Shown here in pieces: positions 6,360 through 50,946 of a stretch of 64,000 nucleotides of DNA. The notes beneath the pieces are model-generated. The model saw nothing but the letters and a program-made list of their open reading frames with translations. It was not told the DNA's origin and made no database searches. The DNA lies in the NCBI GenBank assembly GCA_014727915.1, contig WJMO01000006.1:448001-512000 (forward strand), given 5' to 3'. Position numbers and translations under genes: made by a program. Every line of letters begins with the position of its first letter. Position 1 is the first letter of the stretch. This stretch comes from Candidatus Altiarchaeales archaeon. Its GTDB lineage: Archaea; Altiarchaeota; Altiarchaeia; IMC4; SCGC-AAA252-I15.

Positions 6360-7110
6360 CCTGAGGAAGACCGTTCCAGAGAACGCGACAGAACACTACA
6401 GCAGGTCCAAGAAGTACAAGAGGAAGCTACCAGGTATGGAGAAGGCCATAGCCGACACCAAAAAGAAACTGGAGAACGTGGTCGAAGACGCGCCGGAAGA
6501 GCCCAGGATGAGGAGGAAGGTAGAGCGCAGGTGGTATGAGAAGTTCCGGTGGTTCAGGAGCAGCGACGGCCTCCTCGTGCTAGGAGGGAGGGATGCGACC
6601 ACCAACGACATACTCGTGAAAAAGCACCTTGAAGCAAACGACTTGGTCTTCCACGCCAACGTCCAGGGCGCGCCCTTCATCGTCGTCAAGAACGAGAGGG
6701 GAGGCGAAGTGCCTGAGAGGACGATAACAGAGGCTGCGACCGCTGCCGCATCCTACAGCAAGGCCTGGAGCCGGGGGATGGGCAGCTGCGACGTCTACCA
6801 GGTGAACCCCGACCAGGTGAGCAAAACACCTCCAAGCGGCGAATACCTCCCCAAGGGGGCTTTCATGATATACGGGGAGAAGACCTGGCACAAGAACACA
6901 CCCCTGGAAGTGGCGGTAGGACTATTGGATGATAATGTCATCGGAGGGCCGGCGGAGGCCGTGAAATCCCGGACAGACAACTATGTAACCGTCGGCGTTG
7001 GTGATGTTAAGCAGGGAGCCCTCGCCAAACAAGTCCGCAGCAGGCTCGGAGGCGGAGACTTGGAAGAGATACAACGGCACCTGCCCGGAGGAAGCGGAAA
7101 AATAAAATGA
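6343..7110 (+). CDS. NFACT RNA-binding (DUF814) domain protein, short Rqc2/RqcH-like
   Basis: WYEKFRWF, GGRDA..ND.LVK, FHA, YSKAW, QVSKTPPSGEYLPKGAFMIYG. Confidence 0.9.
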   Translation: MKIEFDLRKTVPENATEHYSRSKKYKRKLPGMEKAIADTKKKLENVVEDAPEEPRMRRKVERRWYEKFRWFRSSDGLLVLGGRDATTNDILVKKHLEANDLVFHANVQGAPFIVVKNERGGEVPERTITEAATAAASYSKAWSRGMGSCDVYQVNPDQVSKTPPSGEYLPKGAFMIYGEKTWHKNTPLEVAVGLLDDNVIGGPAEAVKSRTDNYVTVGVGDVKQGALAKQVRSRLGGGDLEEIQRHLPGGSGKIK

Positions 7111-39973: not shown

Positions 39974-40054
39974 GGGCCTGTAGCCTAGCGGATGCTGCTC
40001 ACATGCGTTCGCGCAGACGAAACTGCAACAGCAGTCTAGCCTAAGGCGACAGCC
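39974..40054 (+). pseudogene. Duplicated 5' half of tRNA-Arg with a 49-nt insert in the D-loop
   Basis: GGGCCTGTAGCCTAGCGGAT [39994-40042] AAGGCGACAGCC matches 40088-40119 exactly once the insert is removed. Confidence 0.8.
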
Positions 40055-40087
40055 CAAAATAGAAAACATAGAAGGAAGCACATTCAC

Positions 40088-40239
40088 GGGCCTGTAGCCT
40101 AGCGGATAAGGCGACAGCCTTCTACGAGCCCCTTTCTTTTAAAAAAAGAAAGGTGCTTCACCCCCAAAGAAAAAAATAGGGTGGTGAGGAAGGGTTCGGG
40201 GATAGCTGTAGATCATGGGTTCGAATCCCATCAGGCCCA
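40088..40239 (+). tRNA. tRNA-Arg(TCT) with 79-nt intron at 37/38 (40125-40203)
   Basis: Acceptor GGGCCTG/CAGGCCC, D stem GCCT/AGGC, AC stem ACAGC/GCTGT, T arm ATGGG-TTCGAAT-CCCAT; BHB with central helix CTTC/GGGG, bulges TA|C and AT|A, outer helix GAGCCC/GGGTTC. Confidence 0.93.
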
Positions 40240-40296
40240 CAAGAATTTTTTATGTTGGGGTTAAGGGGTTTTATTTCCATCATTTTAATCCCTAAT

Positions 40297-41727
40297 ATGC
40301 GCTTATGTTGTCTGATAGTCCTTATCCTCATTTTCTCAGGCTGTATGGGAGGATATGACAAAACAGAAGAATCAAAGCCAGACAATTATTGTGAAACCGA
40401 TCGAGATTGCAGCCCTCTCGGATGTTGTTGTCCTAAAAAATGTACGGGTTCAGTATATGCCAGCCAGTACTATTATGAAAACTGTAAAGGGAAACCCTGT
40501 CCAGAAGTAGTATGTAACCCTGTTGTGACATGCACTTGTGAAAATAACATGTGTAAAACACACAAAGATAGTGTATTCAAAAAAACCACTTCATCAACTC
40601 AATCCACCACGACAACTTTGAAGATTGGGACTGATTATTCTGAACTAATCCACATGTATACTGACAAATTCGACTCAAACAGTTCTATAATCAAATGCCA
40701 AAATGATGATGACTGTATCTTAGTCCCAAATATTGGTAGTTGTAATGCTGGTGGCATAAATATAGCCATCAATAAGGATTTCCAAGAGGGGTGGAACAAG
40801 CAACTAAATGAAGAACGTAGAGGGATGGTGTTTGCAGGAGTCATGTCGCAGCATTCATCATGTTTCTCAAATCCAGTTTGTAACGATAATAAATGCACGA
40901 CTGAGATTAACAATACAATGATTTGCAGTCAACAGGATATTCGTGGAAACTGTGAAAATCCTGCATATGCGAATAACTGGAAAAAGGAACTGGGTATACG
41001 ATGTGAAGATCTTAATGCAATATGTCAGTGGGGGATAGGGAATATCAATGCATCAGACTTCATAAATTGGGATGAGAACTTCGGGTCGTGGGGGGATGAA
41101 TACGGGACATTCATCCAACTTAGAGATTTTAGCGGATATGAGTACGACCTAAACTCCTCGGTGGACGAAAAATTAAAGGTCTACGCATTACGTCGTGAGA
41201 AAAGCAGGAATATATCAAAGGAGTTCATAGCTTTCCTGAAGCAGTTGGATGTGAGTATAGATGAGGATAGGAGTTTCGGGAAGATAATGGTTGTCGGAGG
41301 ACGAAAAGATGACATGCAAAAGGTCATCTTCCACCCCTATGTCGAGTCATATTCCAGAGATAACCCGGGATTCCCGGAGGATATTTTCACAGAAACTGAG
41401 CTGAAATATTGCATGACTGATGATGACTGCATAAGTATTGAAGCATATAGGAATGGATGTACGGCCGGTGGGACATCAATACCCATGAATAAAAAATTCA
41501 AGGAGTATTGGACCGATAAGAGATTGTCAGATACTCTTTTTACAGGAACTACTGGGGTGCTATCCTTCCATTGGTCCTGTTTTGCAATCCCAAAATGTCT
41601 GAACCATAGGTGTGCATTAGTCAATACAACGTGTTCAAGTCCTGAGGATTGTGACGGAGGATACTACTACGAAAAGTTCAGTGAAGGAATAATATGCAAA
41701 GACAATAAATGTTATGGGGATATTTAG
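40297..41727 (+). CDS. Cys-rich lipoprotein with repeated C-x2-D-x-D-C modules
   Basis: Lipobox FSGC; CETDRDC, CQNDDDC, CMTDDDC, CSSPEDC; internal repeat (GSCNAGG..AINK / NGCTAGG..PMNK). Confidence 0.8.
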   Translation: MRLCCLIVLILIFSGCMGGYDKTEESKPDNYCETDRDCSPLGCCCPKKCTGSVYASQYYYENCKGKPCPEVVCNPVVTCTCENNMCKTHKDSVFKKTTSSTQSTTTTLKIGTDYSELIHMYTDKFDSNSSIIKCQNDDDCILVPNIGSCNAGGINIAINKDFQEGWNKQLNEERRGMVFAGVMSQHSSCFSNPVCNDNKCTTEINNTMICSQQDIRGNCENPAYANNWKKELGIRCEDLNAICQWGIGNINASDFINWDENFGSWGDEYGTFIQLRDFSGYEYDLNSSVDEKLKVYALRREKSRNISKEFIAFLKQLDVSIDEDRSFGKIMVVGGRKDDMQKVIFHPYVESYSRDNPGFPEDIFTETELKYCMTDDDCISIEAYRNGCTAGGTSIPMNKKFKEYWTDKRLSDTLFTGTTGVLSFHWSCFAIPKCLNHRCALVNTTCSSPEDCDGGYYYEKFSEGIICKDNKCYGDI

Positions 41728-41847
41728 GCTTCAAAAAAGGTTCTATTTTTGTCTAATAGTTGTTCCAGACTAACTTATAGTGACTATATATTGCAATAAT
41801 CTATATTATAGATATCGAGAAAAATTATATATTGTAAAAGATATATT

Positions 41848-43017
41848 ATGAAAAGGAGTGATTTTCCAGCCCCAAATGGCAGGTTTTCAAAGAATTCCGA
41901 TGGAGACCTTACATTCATCCCAAACAGGATAATCCGGGATATTGAGGGACTATACTCTTCGGAGATAGTGAGCCTTCTTTCAAAGGCTGACAGGATGCTT
42001 GGTTCCCTGGACCGGTGTAGTCAAAGCGACCCGAACATTGACTTCCTCGTCGCGCCCTACATACGGCTCGAGGCTGTCGCGAGCTCAAGAATCGAGGGGA
42101 CTCAGACAACTTTAACGGACTACTACAAGCTGGAGGCAGAAAAGAAAGGGGAACACGACCCGGACTATATCGAGGTCAACAACTACATCAAAACGATGAT
42201 GGCAGGCTTTGAGAGGGTCATTGGCGGACAAAAAATCGACCTCCCCTTCGTCAAATCACTTCATAAGACCCTTGTAGCGGGAAGCGAGCGCACAAAGGGG
42301 GTTCCCGGCCATGTCAGGACGAAACAGAACTGGATAGCCCCCATGAACTCGCCGATAGAGCTTGCGACATATGTCCCACCAGATCCAATTAAACTGGAGC
42401 CCCTGCTAAAGGATATGCAAGGATTCATCCTGAAAGACGATGACATCCCGCCGCTCATAAAGACGGCATTGATACACTATCAGTTCGAGGCGATACACCC
42501 GTTCGAAGACGGAAATGGGAGGGTCGGGAGAATCATCAACTCCCTCTACCTCGGCCAGGCAGGATGCCTCCACAGCCCGATCCTGTTTTTGAGCTTCTAT
42601 TTCCAAAAGCACAGGGACGAATACTGGGCGAGGTTGTTGAGGACCAGCCAGCAAAGCGACTTCGACGGATGGCTTAGATTCTTTTTGAAGGGCATTATAG
42701 AGCAATCGCAAAGGTCTATAGAGCTTTCAAACAAGATAGAAGGGTTGCATACCAGCTATCAGGAACGTCTTGAGAAAAAGAGGGTCACAGCGACCACATT
42801 AAAGGCTTTGAGGCTGCTTTTCACAGGCAACCCATTCGTGTATATGACCGAGCTTGCAAGGGAGCTGGACGTCCATCTTCCGACGGCAAAGAAGGCGATA
42901 ACACAGCTTGAGAAAGAAGGCATCCTGAAGCAATCAAAGGTCAAAAAGCCAGCAATCTACTTCGCCCCCGAGATAATAGATACATTACGGAAGGCTGAAA
43001 AGGAAATGCTCAAATAA
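41848..43017 (+). CDS. Fic family protein with C-terminal HTH
   Basis: EAVASSRIEGT (S/TxxxEG inhibitory motif), HYQFEAIHPFEDGNGRVGR. Confidence 0.93.
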   Translation: MKRSDFPAPNGRFSKNSDGDLTFIPNRIIRDIEGLYSSEIVSLLSKADRMLGSLDRCSQSDPNIDFLVAPYIRLEAVASSRIEGTQTTLTDYYKLEAEKKGEHDPDYIEVNNYIKTMMAGFERVIGGQKIDLPFVKSLHKTLVAGSERTKGVPGHVRTKQNWIAPMNSPIELATYVPPDPIKLEPLLKDMQGFILKDDDIPPLIKTALIHYQFEAIHPFEDGNGRVGRIINSLYLGQAGCLHSPILFLSFYFQKHRDEYWARLLRTSQQSDFDGWLRFFLKGIIEQSQRSIELSNKIEGLHTSYQERLEKKRVTATTLKALRLLFTGNPFVYMTELARELDVHLPTAKKAITQLEKEGILKQSKVKKPAIYFAPEIIDTLRKAEKEMLK

Positions 43018-43090
43018 CGCTCACAAGGACGCAAAAAAGGGAGTACGTACTGGTGGGGTGGTCAGGCATCAGGCCCGCATCAAATTAGAT

Positions 43091-43172
43091 TAGACCAGGG
43101 GTTCGAACGCTCGGAAACCGAAGGTTTCCGGCGCGCCAAAATCCGCAGGCTTTTGAGCGTCCCATCAGGCCC
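43091..43172 (+). pseudogene. Duplicated tRNA-Arg 3' end (att remnant) with a 52-nt insert in the T-loop
   Basis: TAGACCAGGGGTTCGAA [43108-43159] TCCCATCAGGCCC versus tRNA TAGATCATGGGTTCGAA TCCCATCAGGCCC. Confidence 0.8.
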
Positions 43173-43200
43173 GATACAGGATAATAATTGGGTGAGTGTT

Positions 43201-43245
43201 TGCTTGAGGCCGAAACACACTTTTTTTCCGTTGGAAAAAACCGAC
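43201..43245 (+). repeat. Structured element, copy A (homologous to 50725-50777)
   Basis: TGCTTGAGG-CCGAAACACAC-T7-CC-GTTGG-A6-CCGAC. Confidence 0.7.
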
Positions 43246-43283
43246 CCAGCTGGCGCAGGGAATAAAGACCCGAGTCAGGTGTG

Positions 43284-43832
43284 CTAGAATGCTCTTGCCA
43301 CAATAACCGAGGCAGCTGACAACAGAAGAGTTAGCACTGGCATGCAAACACACGCAGTATCGGCTGGTCTATCGGGAGAGGGAACAGTTGATGATGGTTT
43401 TCGGGCGGGGTATTTCGCTTCGTTTATGATTTCAAATGCTGCGGTTTTTGTCTCGTCCTTTTCCGGGTTTAATATGCTCACATCAAGTGTGTAGTAGACG
43501 CCATCAGAGTAGAAGTCGAAAAAACACTGTTCCTCGTCGGAGCCCGCCATTTCACATATGTAATATAGAGTGTGGCCAGAGTATGTGGCCTTTCCCACAT
43601 TTCCCTGTTCATAGCCTTTTTTTAGGTCAGTCCATTCCGAGCTGCTCATATGTTGTTTCTCGAAGATGGCGACGATCCTATCGTCTGTTGAAGCATAGGA
43701 TCTGCTGTTCAGGCTTTCCTCAACCATGGTCAGGTCTAATGCTGGCACATGGTCAGGGAAGGTTAGTTCGGCGACCGCCGGTGGTGAAAGGATGAGGAGT
43801 GCGAGGATGGCGAGATTGGAATGTTTCAGCAT
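43284..43832 (-). CDS. Secreted protein with C-terminal Cys-containing membrane anchor
   Basis: Signal peptide; C-terminus ACVCMPVLTLLLSAASVIVARAF. Confidence 0.7.
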   Translation of the reverse strand: MLKHSNLAILALLILSPPAVAELTFPDHVPALDLTMVEESLNSRSYASTDDRIVAIFEKQHMSSSEWTDLKKGYEQGNVGKATYSGHTLYYICEMAGSDEEQCFFDFYSDGVYYTLDVSILNPEKDETKTAAFEIINEAKYPARKPSSTVPSPDRPADTACVCMPVLTLLLSAASVIVARAF

Positions 43833-43943
43833 ATAGAATGATTTGAGGAAGTGAATAAAAAACCCAGATTCTGCCATCAACACCCACAATACAGAAATCC
43901 CATTAAATATTTTTTTATATTGAATATTGCATTAGATAATGTC

Positions 43944-44381
43944 ATGAAAATAGGTTTAATCCTGGGTTTGGTGATGTTAGCCTCTGGGTGTCTCTGCTGC
44001 TGCAGTGGGGGATCTGACTATGGAGACTATGACTATGATGATTGGGATGCACCAACGGATTATGCGGCAGCTACGGTAGCCTCTCCCAGTGGGGGCCCCA
44101 GGTTGGACTGCCTAGACGGGCATACACTCAATGACATCATGTGCTACAAGGCAGGGGGTGGGATTTCAACGGATGCCAGCCTCTGCAAGCAGATAGATGA
44201 TCCGATTGGAGTTGCCGCATGCCTTGGTGGTGTGGCAGCAGTTAAAGACGATCCTAGCCTATGCAGTCAAAGCAGGGGGGACTTGCATGATTTCTGCGTT
44301 GACGTATCCAATAGCAACTTCGCAGGAGAAACGGCAGGTAGCTTGGAGGAGAAATATCCCTTCCTGAAGCGGTGGGAGTAG
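43944..44381 (+). CDS. Cys-rich lipoprotein
   Basis: Lipobox ASGCLCCCSGG; D.SLC..I / DPSLC repeats. Confidence 0.7.
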   Translation: MKIGLILGLVMLASGCLCCCSGGSDYGDYDYDDWDAPTDYAAATVASPSGGPRLDCLDGHTLNDIMCYKAGGGISTDASLCKQIDDPIGVAACLGGVAAVKDDPSLCSQSRGDLHDFCVDVSNSNFAGETAGSLEEKYPFLKRWE

Positions 44382-44441
44382 GGCGTTCATGGATATCCTG
44401 TCACCGGTATTTAACCTTTGTTTGCCTAAGTTCTTGTCATA

Positions 44442-44630
44442 ATGGCGGATAGGATGTGGACCTACCCTGAGTTGAGGTTTGTCTTCGTCAACCAGTTGAA
44501 GTACACACCCCAGGAGTTGGCCCTGCATGTCAATCGGGAGTTCCACGATGGGGATGACGTGAGGAGCGCCGTTGACATAGAGAATATCAAGAGGGGCAGG
44601 AACATATTCAACAAAGACCAGGGCTTCTGA
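44442..44630 (+). CDS. Small hypothetical protein
   Basis: 62-aa ORF with ATG start preceded by a TTTAA box. Confidence 0.5.
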   Translation: MADRMWTYPELRFVFVNQLKYTPQELALHVNREFHDGDDVRSAVDIENIKRGRNIFNKDQGF

Positions 44631-44664
44631 CCGCTTTTAATTCTGTTGTTTCTTATGAGTTACG

Positions 44665-47022
44665 ATGAAATCCGCTGACTTGAAGTCTTCAGCCGCCGCT
44701 GTCTTCGCAGTGTCGATGATGGGCTATCTGATGACCTTGGCTCCCACCGTGTATGGGGGGGACAGCGGGGACATGATAACAGCCTCGTATAATCTTGGCG
44801 TGGCACACCCCACAGGGTACCCCCTTTATATGCTGTTGGGCAAGGTGTTCTCGCTCATCCCGGTTGGGACGGTGGCCTACAGGTATAATCTGATGAGCGC
44901 GGTGTTCAGCGCTTTGGCTGCGGTTTTCATCTGCCTAACCACGATTTCTTTCACTAAGTCCAGGTTGGCGGGTGTGGGGTCTGGGTTGATGGTGGCCTTC
45001 TCCCACGCGATTTGGGACCAGGCCACTGTCGCGGAGGTCTACGCCTTGAACGGTTTCTTCGTTTCCCTGCTGATCTGGCTGGCCGTAAGGTTCAGGGAGA
45101 AGCGGGATAAGACTCTGCTTAGATACATCGCCTTCGCCTTTGGGCTGGGTTTGACAAACCACATATCCCTGGTGTTTTACGCGCCCGCATTCGCGTACCT
45201 GTTGTATGAGGGCAATAGGAAGGCGTTTATGAAGATAGGAGCGGAGGTCAAGGCCTTCCTTGTGGCGCCGCTCCTCTTGTATCTATACATTCCATTGCGG
45301 GCTGGCAACAGGGTTTACAGCTGGGGTGACCCCAGGGGCGCGGCGGGTTTCATAAGGCATGTCACGGGGAGCATACACCGGCAGACCTACACTCTAACAT
45401 TGAGCAAAGAGGGTGTTTTCGAGCGTTTCTTCGGTTTGTTGTATCATTATTTCAGGCAGTTCTCCCTTGCGGGTGCGCTTGTGTTGGCTGGCCTATACAA
45501 CCACGGCGGCAAGAACAGGACATACCTCCGGTTCACTGGCCTTATGGTTGGCGCCGACCTCATCTACGCCCTCTTCATAAACGATGTTTCGCTTCGGATC
45601 ACCACATTCTGCATCCCCAGCATAATGGCCTTGGGCGTCTGGTCAGGTTATGGATTCCGGGACGTCTTCAAAAGTTTCAAGAGGGGAAAGGACAATGCCT
45701 TTGAGGCGGTCGCGGTGGCGGTTGTAGTCCTGATAGTGTTCGCCTCCAACCATTACATAAGCGACCGGTCCGATAATCTCATAGCATACGATTATGCGAT
45801 GAACATATTGAGGTCCGTGGACGAAGGGGGTGTTGTCTTCGCGGAGGGTGATAATACCGTGCTGCCTTTGAATTATCTTCTGCTTGTCGAGGGAGTTAGG
45901 CCGGATGTGACCTTGTACGAGCGCACGGGTTTCCTAAGCCACAGACTATACGGGAAAGACTTCATATTCCTAGATGAGGATGAGCACGGGGAAGCCCGGG
46001 ACAGGGTCGAGTATGAGGTGGTCCAGGAGGGCAGGCCGGTATATTATACGACCAAATCCGATGTTGACCTTCCAGGGTACGATCTGGAGCAGGCGGGTTT
46101 AGTGTATAAGGTCGTGGCAGAGGGTGAAGAAGGCCCCTCAGAGGATTATTGGAACCTATACGACTACCGGGGAGTTTGGAACCAGACCACCTACGAGGAC
46201 TTCATGACCAGGTACATAAAGGCGGCCTATTACCTTCGCCTTGCGGAATACCGTATGGGAGAGGACAAAGACGCCGCTTTGGAGTTGCTCAACGACGCCA
46301 AGAGGCTCCTCCCAGACAATGTGGAACTCCACTATGACATAGGCAACATACTACTGAGCAAAGGCGACTATAAGGGCGCGGTGGAGGAGTTCGGGAAGGT
46401 TTTAAAGGAAGACGCCGAGAATGTGAAGGCCTTGAACAACAGGGGCTATGCATATGCGATGATGGGATACGGTGAAAGCGCCAAGGAGGATTATATCAAG
46501 GCTCTGAAGTTGGAGCCAGGATATCTTAAGGCGCGTTTCAACCTGGCGGGGGCGCTGATGGCAGAGGAGAGGTTCGGAGAGGCCAGCCAACAGTACAAGC
46601 TCATAGTCGCCGCTGACCCCGAGTACGCTAACGCTTACTTCAACATGGGAGTGAGCCTGTACAGGACCGGCGACCACCAGGGCGCAGTGGATGCGTGGAC
46701 CAGGTATCTGGATTTGAGCCCTGACAGCCCCAGGGCCGGGGAGATACTCGAGCAGATTGAGATAATAGAGGACCAGTATGCTATGGAGCAGAACCTGCTA
46801 GAATGCTCCAACGACAGCGACTGCACAGTAACAGAATATCCGATAAACGCGTGCTGCATGCAAAGGAAGTGCAGGTGGAGGGCTATAAACAAGGAAGGGC
46901 TTGAGCTCCAGGAGAGATGGAGGGAAGATGAGTGCGGAGAGGAAATCAAGTGCATGGTGGATGACTGCGGGGAGCCGGACCGGGAGGTACAGTGCGTCAA
47001 GTTCAAGTGCAAGCTAATATAG
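44665..47022 (+). CDS. DUF2723/TMEM260-like membrane glycosyltransferase with TPRs and Cys-rich tail
   Basis: TLAPTV.GGDSGD, GVAHPTGYPLY, AEVY, GDNT, RPDV, TPRs. Confidence 0.87.
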   Translation: MKSADLKSSAAAVFAVSMMGYLMTLAPTVYGGDSGDMITASYNLGVAHPTGYPLYMLLGKVFSLIPVGTVAYRYNLMSAVFSALAAVFICLTTISFTKSRLAGVGSGLMVAFSHAIWDQATVAEVYALNGFFVSLLIWLAVRFREKRDKTLLRYIAFAFGLGLTNHISLVFYAPAFAYLLYEGNRKAFMKIGAEVKAFLVAPLLLYLYIPLRAGNRVYSWGDPRGAAGFIRHVTGSIHRQTYTLTLSKEGVFERFFGLLYHYFRQFSLAGALVLAGLYNHGGKNRTYLRFTGLMVGADLIYALFINDVSLRITTFCIPSIMALGVWSGYGFRDVFKSFKRGKDNAFEAVAVAVVVLIVFASNHYISDRSDNLIAYDYAMNILRSVDEGGVVFAEGDNTVLPLNYLLLVEGVRPDVTLYERTGFLSHRLYGKDFIFLDEDEHGEARDRVEYEVVQEGRPVYYTTKSDVDLPGYDLEQAGLVYKVVAEGEEGPSEDYWNLYDYRGVWNQTTYEDFMTRYIKAAYYLRLAEYRMGEDKDAALELLNDAKRLLPDNVELHYDIGNILLSKGDYKGAVEEFGKVLKEDAENVKALNNRGYAYAMMGYGESAKEDYIKALKLEPGYLKARFNLAGALMAEERFGEASQQYKLIVAADPEYANAYFNMGVSLYRTGDHQGAVDAWTRYLDLSPDSPRAGEILEQIEIIEDQYAMEQNLLECSNDSDCTVTEYPINACCMQRKCRWRAINKEGLELQERWREDECGEEIKCMVDDCGEPDREVQCVKFKCKLI

Positions 47023-47044
47023 AAGCGAGGCGATTGATTAAACG

Positions 47045-48205
47045 ATGATCGGGAGGAAGAGCATTGAAGAGGTTGTTGGAGGATACGACGGGGAAGATGT
47101 TAAGGTCGGGGTTCTAGCATCCCACAGCGCGTTGGATGTGGCTGAGGGCGCGGTAGCTGAGGGGTTCCGGACGGTGCTCTACTGCCAGAAGGGACGGGAG
47201 AAGACCTACGCAGAATACTTCAAAGCCCGGCGTGACGGCGAGGGTAACCTGGTGCGTGGAGTGGTCGACGAGGCCAGGGTCTACGGCAAGTTCAGGGAGA
47301 TGGTATCCGAAAAGGAGCAGGAGAGGATGAAGGAGGATAACGTGCTTTTCATACCCAACCGTTCCTTCACGTCATACATTGACCTCAAGACCATCGAGGA
47401 TGACTTCAGGGTGCCCATGGTGGGTTCGAGGAACATGCTGAGGAGCGAGGAACGGGGTGAGCAGCAGGACTACTATTGGCTTCTCGAAAAGGCGGGGCTG
47501 CCGTTCCCGGAGAAGATTGACAACCCAGAGGCCATTGACGACCTTTGCATTGTTAAACTACATCACAAACAAAAAAGGTTGGAGAGGGGTTTCTTCACCT
47601 GCAAGAGCCAAGAGGAATACGAAGAAAAATCCGCCCAGCTGATAAAAGACGGGGTTATAACAGCTGATGCGCTGGAGCATGCGCGAATCGAGCGGTACAT
47701 CATCGGCCCCGTCTTCAACCTGGACTTCTTCTACAACCCCTTGGAGGATGAGTTGCCTAAGATCGAGCTCTTGGGCGTTGATTGGAGGTTCGAGTCCTCA
47801 CTGGACGGGCATGTGCGGCTGCCCGCAGCCCAGCAGATGGAGCTGGTGGGCACGAAGCAGGAGATACCTGAGATGACCGTCTGCGGCCACAACAGCGCAA
47901 CACTGCGAGAGTCGCTCTTAGAAAATGCCTTTGACCTGGCTGAGAAGTTCGTGGAAGCCAGCAAGGAACACTACAAGCCAGGTATCATAGGGGCTTTCTG
48001 CCTGCAGACCTGCGTGGACAAGGACCTCAACTACTACATCTACGATGTCGCCCCGAGAATCGGAGGGGGGACGAACGTTCACGTGGCGGTCGGCCACCCC
48101 TACGGGAACGCGCTGTGGAGGAAGGAGATGAGCACCGGCCGACGCACCGCCCAACTCATAAGGGAGGCTGTGGAGCAGGACCGGGTGAATGAGATAGTAA
48201 CCTGA
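47045..48205 (+). CDS. purP: PurP-family AICAR-formate ligase paralog (ATP-grasp)
   Basis: LASHSALD, PNRSF, ERGFF, RFESSLDG, TLRESLL, IIGAFCLQ, RIGGGTN, MSTGRR. Confidence 0.88.
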   Translation: MIGRKSIEEVVGGYDGEDVKVGVLASHSALDVAEGAVAEGFRTVLYCQKGREKTYAEYFKARRDGEGNLVRGVVDEARVYGKFREMVSEKEQERMKEDNVLFIPNRSFTSYIDLKTIEDDFRVPMVGSRNMLRSEERGEQQDYYWLLEKAGLPFPEKIDNPEAIDDLCIVKLHHKQKRLERGFFTCKSQEEYEEKSAQLIKDGVITADALEHARIERYIIGPVFNLDFFYNPLEDELPKIELLGVDWRFESSLDGHVRLPAAQQMELVGTKQEIPEMTVCGHNSATLRESLLENAFDLAEKFVEASKEHYKPGIIGAFCLQTCVDKDLNYYIYDVAPRIGGGTNVHVAVGHPYGNALWRKEMSTGRRTAQLIREAVEQDRVNEIVT

Positions 48206-48255
48206 CCTTAACCGACTAGCTCGGATTTAAGGTTTTGATTCGAAAGAATAACAGT

Positions 48256-49095
48256 ATGGGCAGCATCAGGTTCTCCGCTTTCCAGAAGAGAAACGAGTCG
48301 GTCCCGGCAGAGCTTGTGCCAGATATAGAGGGGATGTGGAGTTACTGGGCCGGTACCGTATGGCCGCCGCAGATGGTGCTTCAACCGCTTGACCTCCGAG
48401 ACACCGATGTTTTCATGGACGTTGGTTGCGCTATTGGAGAGCACGCGATATACGCGGGCTGCAGGGGAGGGACGTCTGGGGCAGGGGTCAGGGAATCTTA
48501 TGGCCTGGACAATCCTAAGAAGATGATACGTCTGGCGAACATGCTGTCAAGGGCCGTGAAAATGGGGCATCCACTGGCTGATAAGGTATGGGACTATCAC
48601 CGATACGGACAAGACGCCCTAGGAGGCATGAGGATGCACGTTGAAAGATGCCAGGATGAGATAACTGATAATGCGCCGCTGCTGGATAACGTGAGATTCG
48701 CCTGTGTCAACCCCTATTATCTGCCAATAAGGTCGGACTCTGTGGACAAGCTGCAGAGCCTGTCAACGATCTCATACGAGCCTGACCCGTTGAAGAGGAG
48801 GAACATGATCAAGGAACAATTGAGGGTCGTCAGGGCGGGAGAGGGGAGGATACATGTTTTGGGCCACGACTACCACCCCACAAAAATGCCCAGGAACATG
48901 TTTGACGACCAGCCACTCCACCTGCAAAACGAGTATATCACGCTGCCTCATGAGTTCGAGGAAGTAGCAGGATTACTGGGTGTGAAGCTAAGGAGGGTCC
49001 AGGATTCGCCCGTATATGATCCTGGAAGGCACGGTGCAGTATATTTGGTGGAGGAGAAGGCCAAACCCCTGCCGAAAGGAATATTCAGGTTTTGA
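48256..49095 (+). CDS. Divergent class I SAM-dependent methyltransferase-like protein
   Basis: FMDVGCAIG motif I; LPIRSDSVD; EQLRVVRAG. Confidence 0.65.
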   Translation: MGSIRFSAFQKRNESVPAELVPDIEGMWSYWAGTVWPPQMVLQPLDLRDTDVFMDVGCAIGEHAIYAGCRGGTSGAGVRESYGLDNPKKMIRLANMLSRAVKMGHPLADKVWDYHRYGQDALGGMRMHVERCQDEITDNAPLLDNVRFACVNPYYLPIRSDSVDKLQSLSTISYEPDPLKRRNMIKEQLRVVRAGEGRIHVLGHDYHPTKMPRNMFDDQPLHLQNEYITLPHEFEEVAGLLGVKLRRVQDSPVYDPGRHGAVYLVEEKAKPLPKGIFRF

Positions 49096-49130
49096 ATTAT
49101 TATATTTGTCTGATTCCTAAATTTTATATT

Positions 49131-49601
49131 ATGAGCATAGCAACCGCGGATCCTGCAACCGTAGAGGGGGCTAATATTCCTGTGGAACTGGCAGAGGACC
49201 CTGCAGAGCACATGATCACCCGGAAGGAGTATGACGCCTATTTGAAGGCTGCCCGTGAGCGGGCCAGGATACCGCCGGGAAGCCAGAACAGTAAGGGCTA
49301 CGAGGACATTGAAGGCAGGCTATCTGGTATGGAGGGCATGAGCAGGCGAGAAGCCAGGACCCTGGTGAAAAGAGTATGTCATGATCCTAACCGGCAGGGG
49401 GCGGACTGCGACCTCGGGGGAACGTGGCAGCCCATGTTCTTCGCATACCTATACTACAGGATCAGCAAGGACGCGGGTTTGAAATATGACCCGATAGTGC
49501 CGTATATCACAGTGGACAAACTCGACGGAGACCTGCACGCGAGGATGGCTGAGGCGCGGAGAAAGAGGTTCTCGCCGCGCAGGTTACTGGATGGGGACTG
49601 A
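49131..49601 (+). CDS. Hypothetical protein
   Basis: ORF behind an AT-rich promoter-like spacer. Confidence 0.55.
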   Translation: MSIATADPATVEGANIPVELAEDPAEHMITRKEYDAYLKAARERARIPPGSQNSKGYEDIEGRLSGMEGMSRREARTLVKRVCHDPNRQGADCDLGGTWQPMFFAYLYYRISKDAGLKYDPIVPYITVDKLDGDLHARMAEARRKRFSPRRLLDGD

Positions 49602-49635
49602 AAGGCTTTTATAGCTCGTTTTCTATAATGCTTTA

Positions 49636-50718
49636 ATGGTTGCTGTAGCTGAAGTACACCGGATTCTCGACGATTACGATCACAGCAGCGTCTCCGTAGC
49701 CACCATCGGCAGCCATAGCGCATTGAACATCTTCAAGGGAGCGAGGGAGGAGGGTTTCAAGACCGTGTGCATCTGCAAGAAAGGAAGGGAGAAGACATAC
49801 AACCGGTTCGGGCTGGTGGACGATTACATCATGATAGACGACATGAACGACACCGCCTCCGAGGAAGTGCAGGAGAAGCTCAGGGAATTGAACAGCATCG
49901 TAATACCCCACGGTTCCTTCAACGCCTACATAGACCAGGCTAGGATGGACGAGTTCAGAGTGCCCATAATGGGCAACCGCACGCTGTTGGAGGTGGAGAC
50001 CTCACGGGTCAAACAGCACGATTGGATGAGGTCCGCGGGTTTGAAGGTCCCGAAGATATTCGAGTCCGCCAAGGACATCGAGGAACTGGCTTTCGTCAAA
50101 TTTCCAGGGGCGAAAGGTGGGAAGGGCTACTTTGTGGTGGACAGCGAGGCAGCCTTCAAGAAGAAGATGAAGCTTATGCTCAAGAAGAATCTCATAACCA
50201 AGGAGGAGGCCAAGAACCCCTATATACAAGAGTACATAATCGGCGTGAACGCCTACCCCCACTACTTCCACAGCCCGTTGAGGGATGAGACTGAGTTCCT
50301 CGGCGTGGATAAGAGGTATGAGTCGAGTGTGGACGGCGTCTTCAGGATACCGGTGCCAGAGCAGATAGGGCAGGAGATAAGCCCAACATTCAGCATCGTG
50401 GGCAACTTCCCCATGGTGCTGAGAGAATCGCTTTTGGATGAGATATTCGACATCGGCGAGAAGATCGTGAAGGAAAGCGAGAAACTCGCCCCTCCAGGGC
50501 TTATAGGCGCCTTCTGCCTTGAAGCCATCATAAAGGAGGATCTGGAGATAATAGCCTTCGAGATATCCTCTAGGATCGTGGCCGGCTGCAACGCCCTGAT
50601 AGGGAGCAGCCCATACACATACCTGATGTACAATGAACCGATGTACATGGGCAAGAGGATAGCCAGGGAGATAAAAGAAGCAGTCAAAGAAGACAAACTC
50701 AAAGAACTGGTAACCTGA
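49636..50718 (+). CDS. purP: Formate--AICAR ligase PurP
   Basis: IGSHSAL, IPHGSF, GAKGGKGYF, RYESSVDG, GNFP..LRESLL, FEISSRIVAG, MGKRIAREI. Confidence 0.93.
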   Translation: MVAVAEVHRILDDYDHSSVSVATIGSHSALNIFKGAREEGFKTVCICKKGREKTYNRFGLVDDYIMIDDMNDTASEEVQEKLRELNSIVIPHGSFNAYIDQARMDEFRVPIMGNRTLLEVETSRVKQHDWMRSAGLKVPKIFESAKDIEELAFVKFPGAKGGKGYFVVDSEAAFKKKMKLMLKKNLITKEEAKNPYIQEYIIGVNAYPHYFHSPLRDETEFLGVDKRYESSVDGVFRIPVPEQIGQEISPTFSIVGNFPMVLRESLLDEIFDIGEKIVKESEKLAPPGLIGAFCLEAIIKEDLEIIAFEISSRIVAGCNALIGSSPYTYLMYNEPMYMGKRIAREIKEAVKEDKLKELVT

Positions 50719-50848
50719 ACCGGGTGCTTGAGGGGCGTAAGCCCCGAAACACACCTTTGTCGTCGGCTAACTCCGACATGGGCAAGAGGATAGCCAGGGA
50801 GATAAAAGAAGCAGTCAAAGAAGACAAACTCAAAGAACTGGTAACCTG
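50645..50848 (+). repeat. 73-bp perfect direct repeat of the purP 3' end (50645-50717, 50776-50848) around a 58-nt spacer
   Basis: Direct sequence comparison: ACATGGGCAAGAGG...GGTAACCTG twice. Confidence 0.9.
50725..50777 (+). repeat. Structured element, copy B (homologous to 43201-43245)
   Basis: TGCTTGA-GGGGC-GTAA-GCCCC-GAAACACAC-CTTTGTC-GTCGG-CTAACT-CCGAC. Confidence 0.7.
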
Positions 50849-50946
50849 GTATTTGGGGGGTGTTTTATTTCATTTTTAATAGGTGTGGTCTCAATATATT
50901 GTATCTCTTATTCAGAGTCGAAAAAAAAAATTTGAGGTGAAAAAAC

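Follow-up and report, generated by a model that had tools for sequence, protein, structure and literature searches.

A Family of Small Structured Elements, Often between Duplicated Gene Ends, in Altiarchaeota and Other DPANN Archaea

INTRODUCTION

What is the short, hairpin-bearing sequence that occurs twice in one stretch of archaeal DNA, once as the spacer between two identical copies of a gene end, and how did it come to be there? The stretch, here called the window, is 64,000 nucleotides (nt) of the genome of Candidatus Altiarchaeales archaeon (GenBank assembly GCA_014727915.1, contig WJMO01000006.1, positions 448,001 to 512,000 of the forward strand). Copy A of the sequence lies near a remnant of a tRNA-Arg gene, and copy B lies at the 3' end of the gene purP. 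A first-pass annotation, made from the DNA letters alone, had noticed both copies, had placed both at direct-repeat scars, and had proposed that they might be an undescribed non-autonomous mobile element or noncoding RNA. Here we report that A and B are members of a family that is absent from Rfam and occurs in Altiarchaeota and other DPANN archaea. That the family is a non-autonomous mobile element is well supported; how its members move is weighed below.

RESULTS

The two copies in the window

The pattern TGCTTGAGG-N0-20-CCGAAACACAC matches the window twice, at 43201 and 50725, both times on the plus strand, and matches none of 100 dinucleotide-preserving shuffles of the window. The two look-alike copies of the first-pass annotation, with their common words and hairpins, are therefore real, and so is the difference that it described in the middle stem, which is GGGGC-GTAA-GCCCC in copy B and has collapsed to GG/CC, with the loop gone, in copy A. 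The first stem of A also has a 2-nt bulge. A covariance model (R1) was built from 12 copies of the family, with copy A excluded from the model alignment. It finds three copies in the source genome: the third copy scores 51.9 bits, B scores 43.2 bits (E = 7e-9), and A scores 19.9 bits (E = 0.058). Copy A is an old, decayed relic of the family. No repeat of at least 11 nt flanks it, and the 13-nt copy of the tRNA-Arg(TCT) 3' end that lies 23 nt upstream of it (43160-43172) belongs to a separate event. Thus, the claim of a direct-repeat scar holds for B, with its 73-nt repeats, but not for A. Rfam returned nothing at either copy, at the gathering score or at E values up to 10; its sole match in the window is the tRNA at 40088-40239.

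Three stems covary around an invariant internal loop

Copies of the family are about 55 to 60 nt long and follow one order: a first stem (P1), an internal loop, a second stem (P2), a U-rich linker of 6 to 9 nt, and a terminal hairpin (P3). P1 has 5 bp, for example GUGCG/CGCAC, GAGGG/CCCUC, or GGGUG/CACCC. The two strands of the internal loop, CUUGA and GAAA, are invariant. P2 begins with a G-C pair and is variable in sequence and length beyond it. In the subfamily to which the window's copies belong, P3 reads GUCGG-NNAACU-CCGAC; other stems are found elsewhere, some of them with long insertions in the loop.

Pairs were counted in 23 sequences, which are the 29 aligned sequences minus copy A and five others with P3 in a shifted register. 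In this alignment 99.7% of the cells are paired (95.4% in the 12-sequence alignment), and all three stems covary. Both sides have changed at 6 of the 14 pairs (1 in P1, 3 in P2, and 2 in P3). The covariation score was reached in none of 500 shuffles, and sliding the partners against each other lowered pairing to 23 to 54%. Among about 1320 stem pairs there are 15 G-U and 8 A-C pairs; nearly all the others are Watson-Crick. Because G-U pairs are about as rare as A-C pairs, there is no clear sign that the element folds only as the sense RNA. The internal loop could be closed by U-A, U-A, G-A, and A-G pairs with a bulged C.

Distribution of the family

In the 49 genomes of the order, a relaxed pattern search turned up many copies in which the middle stem is different yet remains paired. 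Model R1 matches 20 of the 61 genomes of the class, with 36 matches in one genome (G036) and 7 in another (G038); it has no matches in the 12 genomes of families f8 and f9. These genomes are incomplete metagenome-assembled genomes (MAGs), 57 to 97% complete. When one genome per species was scanned with the exact pattern (185,579 species), 59 stretches were found, nearly all of them archaeal, where by our own estimate about 4 would be expected by chance. The records with matches are from Altiarchaeota (Altiarchaeales), Woesearchaeota, Nanohalarchaeota, Iainarchaeum, Micrarchaeota, one Methanosarcinales MAG, and other archaea. The five bacterial matches are apparently in coding sequence and are without the terminal hairpin. 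A metagenome scan gave 32 further stretches, and in total we collected 86 distinct copies.

In G036 the module sits in a unit of 114 to 136 nt that forms tandem arrays. Neighboring units differ from each other, and their first hairpins are truncated to different degrees. Several copies, including these arrays, lie at contig ends. A G036 array gave no Rfam match, and none of the ribozyme families matched it at E values up to 10.

Viral contigs were searched with the pattern GCTTGAGG-N2-14-CCGAAAC. Of at least 118 matches, three had all five P1 pairs, but a P3 hairpin or a P2 paired throughout was seen in none of them; a viral origin thus finds no support among the matches listed. In four records of the Nanohalarchaeota type (L228, L238, L242, and L259) another small hairpin element lies scattered among the copies of the module. 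It reads GTGACCTAAA..GGTCGC, followed by a CAACCTTT-loop-AAGGTTG hairpin of the same type.

Copy B lies between duplicated ends of purP

The 73-nt direct repeats around copy B, DR1 and DR2, are spaced 131 nt apart. DR1 is the end of the intact purP gene, whose TGA stop codon consists of the last two bases of DR1 and the first base beyond it. The third copy in the source genome has the same arrangement: the TG that ends the repeat is completed by the first A after it. That copy follows endA, which encodes the tRNA-splicing endonuclease, and a duplicate of the gene's final 71 nt stands behind it. DR2 reads TGG at the spot where DR1 runs into the stop codon, and the DNA 3' of DR2 aligns with the native intergenic DNA of G001, a genome of the same genus. 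The purP site is empty in four relatives (G001, G002, G016, and G018).

The junction of copy B lies in the palindrome ATGTACAT. There were no inverted pairs flanking B among the 25 longest of the 41 found. The fold around B has no bulge-helix-bulge (BHB) motif and is no more stable than that of shuffled sequences (z = -0.67). Another purP paralogue is at 47045-48205. At 50776-50879 the displaced purP end gives an ORF (open reading frame) of 33 codons, MGKRIAREIK...FHF*, that is open to being miscalled as a small gene.

A different pair of hairpins occupies exactly the position of copy B in the purP gene of another genome, G004, where it also lies between duplicated purP ends (L280:1918-1991). 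In this insert Watson-Crick pairs replace the G-A pairs of the internal loop, and the linker and P3 are multicopy within the genus of G004. The G004-type pair suggests a wider superfamily with exchangeable hairpins. Its second hairpin, CAGCCTTAGTAAGGCTG, resembles the first hairpin of the G036 unit.

The insertion signature

Exact flanking direct repeats of at least 12 nt were found at 32 of 54 copies and, in a control with reversed flanks, at none of the 54. In a larger set, 40 of 77 copies lie between such repeats, which are 12 to 93 nt long. In most repeat-flanked copies the downstream repeat starts right at P3's 3' base or only a few nt away. The 5' boundary of the unit is not conserved among copies, and no common target word is visible at the junctions that we read.

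The targets (purP, endA, RNase J-like and GatE-like genes, and several tRNA genes) are unrelated, and the inserts, about 100 to 160 nt, contain no ORF. What is duplicated is 73 nt of purP at copy B, 71 nt of the 3' end of the endonuclease gene at the third copy, 93 nt of the RNase J-like gene at L198, 33 nt of the 5' end of the GatE-like gene, on the other strand, at L003, 45 nt of the 5' end of another gene at L186, and the first 18 nt of a tRNA-Met gene at L184. At L184 P3 abuts position +1 of the intact tRNA. P3 lies 1 nt from a tRNA +1 position at L213 and abuts the 3' ends of convergent tRNA genes at L209 and L219. Copies occur in both orientations relative to the neighboring genes, and most are intergenic or at the ends of protein genes.

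In copy B and the third copy the module follows the upstream repeat almost directly. Several other events have, between upstream repeat and module, a stretch that is a diverged homologue of what follows the downstream repeat, the native continuation; it is here called the carried stretch. At purP of G004 the carried stretch encodes LKRLADIVT* and the native end QHRLPDIVT*, a diverged homologue. Compared with shuffles, the similarity of the carried stretch to the native continuation has a z score of 4.5 at L038 and 2.3 at L310. Read by eye, L198 has TTT TAA against TTC TAG, the same residue and a stop, and L003 has two alternative N termini of the GatE-like gene, each with its own ATG.

Two apparent regularities did not hold. 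A constant unit size of about 128 nt (127, 131, 127, and 128) was rejected, as the distance between repeat starts is 93 to 250 nt in the larger set and most of the cluster at 114 to 136 nt is due to the unit that multiplied in G036 and G038. Since the unit size is not constant, we dropped the ideas of an Okazaki fragment and of a histone ruler. A repeat that starts at an in-frame ATG is found at copy B, the third copy, and the G004 insert; at L198 the start is 1 nt off, and at L310, L003, L038, and L040 there is no such start.

Copies inside tRNA and rRNA genes

Only 2 of the 86 distinct copies are in intron positions, where a functional RNA gene is interrupted and its conserved sequence would be restored by removal of the insert. 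One of these copies is in a Micrarchaeota record (L267), inside a 23S rRNA gene, where it interrupts an Rfam large-subunit match of full length (model positions 1-2987). The insert, about 90 nt, lies in the conserved GAGYUCAUAUCGACGG region of the peptidyl-transferase domain and is absent from the 23S rRNA gene of the source genome. Its minimum-free-energy fold (z = -4.2) has exon-exon pairing and then a 4-bp helix with bulges of 4 nt and 3 nt at its ends, both reading AUA. A standard BHB motif has 3-nt bulges at both ends of such a helix. Symmetric cuts at these bulges would restore GAGCUCAUAUCGACGG. On this by-eye reading of the predicted fold, the insertion looks like a BHB intron. The 16S rRNA gene in the same record (L267:901-2711) measures 1811 nt, whereas the model has 1478 positions, and it carries about 330 nt of insertions.

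The other copy is in a tRNA-His(GUG) gene, within an 88-nt intron at position 37/38, and is antisense to the tRNA; the same sequence occurs in records L222 and L182.

Search for an enzyme

We searched the source genome and copy-rich genomes for genes that might move the element. An RVT_1 reverse transcriptase was found in none of six genomes, the source genome and five copy-rich ones. A Y1 transposase (PF01797) was found in 2 of 5 genomes, G036 and G027, and not in the source genome; among the genomes searched, a Y2 transposase was found only in G036 and TnpB only in G036 and G038. Integrases are present in 4 of 5 genomes. The source genome, G010, and G038 have copies of the element and neither a Y1 nor a Y2 gene. 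The TnpB, Y1, Y2, and integrase genes that we inspected have no copy of the element within about 1.5 kb. No ORF family recurs beside copies, either: when the 602 ORFs within 2.5 kb of copies were clustered, the largest clusters had 6 members, mostly from the same or orthologous loci.

The tRNA-Arg locus near copy A

Table 1 gives the coordinates of the features discussed here. The surroundings of copy A hold pieces of tRNA genes. Upstream of the tRNA-Arg gene (39975-40087) there is a 20-nt copy of the gene's 5' end, 113 nt before the real start, followed by a hairpin-rich 41 nt and then by a piece that resembles a D arm and anticodon stem; this is a duplication of a gene terminus without the module. 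Downstream, at 43066-43172, lies a tRNA 3' fragment, GGGGTTCGAA ... TCCCATCAGGCCC, with a further remnant, CATCAGGCCCG, about 90 nt upstream of it; the interrupted fragment and this remnant point to several layers of events at the tRNA-Arg locus. The 2.9-kb segment from the tRNA gene to its 3' remnant (40252-43017) holds a 491-amino-acid ORF that matches nothing in Pfam and a gene for a Fic/DOC protein whose tail is a winged helix. No integrase gene lies between tRNA-Arg and its remnant, and the segment looks like what is left of an integrated element that has no integrase.

The intron of the tRNA-Arg gene (40125-40203) has a long stretch in common with the 123- to 125-nt introns of other tRNAs elsewhere, namely tRNA-Met in L184 and tRNA-Gln and tRNA-Gly in L219. 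Common to them are the hairpin TTTCTTTT-loop-AAGAAA and GGTGCTTCACCCCC. The introns that share it appear to make up another family, separate from the present one.

TABLE 1 Features of the window and the third copy of the source genome. P1, P2, and P3 are the stems of the module; P1' is the 3' strand of P1; DR1 and DR2 are the direct repeats around copy B.
Feature	Position	Strand	Remarks
tRNA-Arg(TCT) gene	40088..40240	+	79-nt intron at 37/38; context of copy A, outside the element
tRNA 3' fragment	43095..43172	+	T arm and acceptor 3' strand, 53-nt insert in T loop; by-eye comparison with tRNA-Arg 3' end
Copy A, whole	43196-43245	+	Ends with terminal hairpin P3
Copy A, P1-core-P1'	43196..43220	+	GTGT(TT)G-CTTGAGG/CCGAAAC-ACAC
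Copy A, linker	43221..43229	+	Pyrimidine rich, TTTTTTTCC; aligned with linkers of other copies
Copy A, P3	43230..43245	+	GTTGG-AAAAAA-CCGAC
purP (DUF1246/DUF1297)	49636..50718	+	Last 73 nt are DR1
DR1	50645..50717	+	Upstream 73-nt direct repeat, purP 3' end; 100% identity to DR2
Copy B, whole	50722-50777	+	Spacer between 73-nt purP repeats
Copy B, P1 to P1'	50722..50754	+	P1 (GGGTG)-CTTGA-P2 (GGGGC-GTAA-GCCCC)-GAAA-P1' (CACAC)
Copy B, linker	50755..50761	+	CTTTGTC
Copy B, P3	50762..50777	+	GTCGG-CTAACT-CCGAC; last two bases overlap start of DR2
DR2	50776..50848	+	Downstream partial copy of purP 3' end, then native intergenic DNA
Third copy, source genome	G000:C11:6601-6623 (within 6572-6707, L168)	-	Directly after EndA gene

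DISCUSSION

A mobile family and how it may move

The scattered loci, the empty orthologous sites, the target duplications, the arrays, and the sublineages shared between genomes together give good support to the conclusion that these modules are a family of non-autonomous mobile elements. The suggestion of the first-pass annotation that the element is undescribed and possibly mobile has thus been borne out by further copies, covarying stems, target duplications, and the lack of an Rfam match. Of the neighborhoods that it named, duplications and contacts with tRNA genes were found but tnpA or tnpB genes beside copies were not.

Of the possible mechanisms, we favor with moderate confidence a gene-end cassette that is mobile at the level of DNA and enters new sites by homology-anchored recombination or copying, with its P3 end fixed. 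All of this is inferred: the mechanism, its intermediate, the part played by host enzymes of recombination or replication, and the choice of DNA over RNA. The moving unit would be the module plus a stretch of whichever gene terminus happened to adjoin it. It might enter by a single crossover of a small circular copy, or by one-ended, homology-facilitated or template-switch copying that stops at the P3 hairpin. One junction would then always be at the 3' base of P3, and the other would fall wherever the carried stretch matches the resident gene. The outcome would be an intact gene, its terminus sometimes exchanged, then the module, and then, from P3 on, the displaced partial terminus. At copy B, the element would provide the last base of the purP stop codon. 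Within tRNA and rRNA genes, only insertions whose transcript can be spliced at a BHB motif would persist. We prefer homology-anchored insertion because of the exact P3 end, the variable other boundary, the long and variable duplications, and the homologous terminus that is sometimes exchanged; the nearly pure Watson-Crick stems and the antisense copy in the tRNA-His intron favor the DNA level.

Several observations weigh against this cassette mechanism. First, in 10 of 13 testable events the carried stretch has no nucleotide homology to the native continuation, so that the only anchor there would be the repeat itself, 12 to 24 nt long. Second, the perfect repeats stand beside diverged homologous stretches, which requires an extra assumption, gene conversion or mosaic donors. 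Third, the unpaired CUUGA and GAAA and the P3 loop NNAACU are invariant across phyla, which argues for a specific protein or RNA partner, and none was found. Fourth, P3 abuts a tRNA +1 position, tRNA 3' ends, and an intron 5' splice site, all of which are RNA processing sites and fit an RNA intermediate better. Fifth, DR2 has TGG where the relatives have a stop codon, which means either a native tail of 10 codons or a mutation exactly at the repeat boundary. Finally, in genomes as incomplete as these MAGs the absence of an enzyme is weak evidence.

Alternatives

The contacts with RNA processing sites lead to an alternative in which the element is an RNA-mediated mobile mini-intron. The 3' end of the RNA would be made at the base of P3 and its 5' end would be a transcript start or a processing site; the archaeal RNA ligase would make the RNA circular, as happens with excised BHB introns, a DNA copy of it would then recombine into a homologous gene, and the splicing endonuclease would remove the copies in tRNA and rRNA. 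The 23S copy with its BHB-like fold and the tRNA-His intron copy agree with such a route, as do the positions of P3 at tRNA termini in L184, L213, L209, and L219, and a 2026 preprint leaves the arrival of archaeal introns open (bioRxiv 10.64898/2026.10.13.758758). Nevertheless, we consider the RNA route unlikely. No reverse transcriptase of the RVT_1 family was found in the six genomes searched, the tRNA-His copy is antisense to its tRNA, G-U pairs are no commoner than A-C pairs, most copies are intergenic and need no splicing, and around copy B there is no BHB motif and no unusual stability.

We assign a similarly low probability to the idea that the module is a transposon end, or a site at which some DNA enzyme (an HUH nickase, a structure-specific nuclease, or a recombinase, for example) recognizes the invariant nucleotides of the loops, cuts at the base of P3, and makes long staggered cuts that become the 12- to 93-nt duplications. 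This would account for unpaired nucleotides that do not change across phyla, for the exact end at P3, and for the high copy number in single genomes, with 36 matches in G036, a genome that also has Y1, Y2, and TnpB. However, the 5' end of the unit is not conserved, the length of the duplications varies eightfold, and a target-homologous stretch next to the module, as seen in several events, is not predicted by cutting and ligating. The three genomes that have copies and no Y1 or Y2 gene (the source genome, G010, and G038) also speak against such an enzyme, as does the lack of a module beside any candidate gene.

A vertically inherited cis-regulatory element or small RNA gene that does not move and only happens to stand near repeats, e.g., a terminator, a stabilizing hairpin, or a protein-binding site, is a good deal less probable. 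A TAA or TGA codon often stands directly before P1 (TAA in 30 of 78 copies), and an ORF of at least 190 codons ends within 6 nt of P1 in 6 of 78 copies; a control window 60 nt upstream also had 6 ORFs, of at least 80 codons, and we therefore claim no enrichment of ORF ends. A hairpin followed by a U run looks like a terminator, and copy B sets both just behind the purP stop codon. Protein-binding RNA motifs form tandem G-A pairs, and the internal loop could form such pairs. But the copies lie at unrelated loci in different genomes and in both orientations, the purP site is empty in four relatives, 40 of 77 copies have target duplications, and there are tandem arrays and copies at contig ends. 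A role as a terminator after insertion is still compatible with mobility.

That the element is one already catalogued, either a hammerhead-type ribozyme or the right end or a palindrome-associated derivative of an IS200/IS605 element, both of which the first-pass annotation had been reminded of by the GAAAC after a hairpin and by a subterminal hairpin on the minus strand, is highly improbable: although the linker reads CUGAUGA in some Nanohalarchaeota-type copies, it does so without a following GAAA and third stem, the junction has two stems instead of three with CUUGA in place of CUGAUGA, no Rfam family, ribozymes included, matches at the gathering score or at E up to 10, no Y1 gene was found in the source genome, and the copies have target duplications and no TnpA or TnpB gene beside them. 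Readings as a diversity-generating retroelement or as CRISPR repeats were rejected, as the repeats do not differ from each other, the six genomes searched yielded no reverse transcriptase, and arrays of repeats and spacers are absent.

What the family may mean

The signature of these insertions, an exact hairpin end and long, variable duplications of gene termini without an enzyme gene, fits no standard class. Small structured repeats are known from bacteria; this family has no Rfam match and is common to several DPANN phyla. For genome annotation, the element matters because gene ends are cut short or replaced by it, the pseudo-duplicates left behind may be taken for small ORFs, and MAG assemblies break at it.

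The element may also help to explain the spread of archaeal introns, and it offers concrete candidates that can be tested. As a speculation that we regard as rather doubtful, the modules might be the archaeal counterpart of eukaryotic introners: a self-propagating family, they would spread through DPANN genomes as a small circle of about 100 to 160 nt, of RNA or DNA, that carries a piece of its latest host gene, inserts by homology, and becomes a BHB intron at sites in tRNA and rRNA genes that can be processed by the splicing endonuclease. If true, such spread would be a long-sought route of archaeal intron gain. According to the preprint cited above, the route by which archaeal tRNA introns arrive remains open, and another paper reports 213 introns with direct repeats of 4 to 30 bp on or close to their borders, among them 5 introns of the archaeal type (PMC11782384). 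In the literature searched on Altiarchaeota introns and repeats, DPANN rRNA introns, and archaeal intron mobility, the portions available contain no description of such an element, and the word "intron" does not appear in the available portions of the Altiarchaeota papers that the search turned up. The phrase "homology-facilitated illegitimate recombination" was not found in the papers turned up on that topic.

Comparison with known systems

The closest likeness in form is to the repetitive extragenic palindromes (REPs), bacterial interspersed mosaic elements (BIMEs), and MITEs (miniature transposable elements with inverted repeats) of bacteria, which are also short, structured, multicopy, noncoding, mostly extragenic, found at gene ends, and sometimes arranged in arrays; some of them can act as terminators or as RNA-stabilizing hairpins. 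Our element differs in that conservation is confined to the 3' part, pieces of gene termini are carried along, and no RAYT or Y1 gene was found in the source genome. It also lacks terminal inverted repeats, and its duplications of 12 to 93 nt are variable where those of the bacterial elements are short and fixed, so it does not belong to the MITEs.

IS200/IS605 elements with their palindrome-associated derivatives, and the one-ended, rolling-circle elements of the IS91/Helitron type, likewise have a hairpin at one precise end and a variable other end, and the carried DNA recalls gene capture by Helitrons and ISCR elements. However, those families make no target duplications, and the junction of our element is at the base of the hairpin, not some nt beyond it. 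IS200/IS605 elements insert 3' of a fixed tetra- or pentanucleotide without duplication, and the 12- to 93-nt duplications exclude the element from that group.

Islands and archaeal proviruses that use tyrosine recombinases integrate at gene or tRNA ends and bring a substitute gene end in their attP; they also duplicate a gene terminus and leave the gene intact, sometimes with a foreign terminus, and favor tRNA 3' ends. Here, in contrast, the whole insert is about 100 to 160 nt and encodes no integrase, the targets are many and unrelated, and there is no single conserved att core, which removes the element from the att-site class.

At the level of structure, tandem G-A and A-G pairs next to a G-C pair, with a GAAA strand, resemble domain 2 of the hammerhead and the noncanonical stem of the K-turn. 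A K-turn has a 3-nt bulge, tandem sheared G-A pairs, and a 5+2 loop. The loop of our element is 5+4 (CUUGA opposite GAAA) in all aligned copies, and the element is therefore not a K-turn; nor does it have a hammerhead core, since its junction is two-way, with only two stems at the loop and CUUGA as the 5' strand. Neither resemblance is accompanied by an Rfam match.

Archaeal BHB introns share with the family the two copies at intron positions, and an insert of 88 to 90 nt fits the size of small archaeal introns, but most copies need no splicing, the tRNA-His copy is antisense, and the conserved module is not part of the BHB motif. Eukaryotic introners belong to another domain of life and another splicing system, and only two copies of our element are in intron positions; nevertheless, introners are also a repeated family with target duplications, whose copies become introns where the host can splice them.

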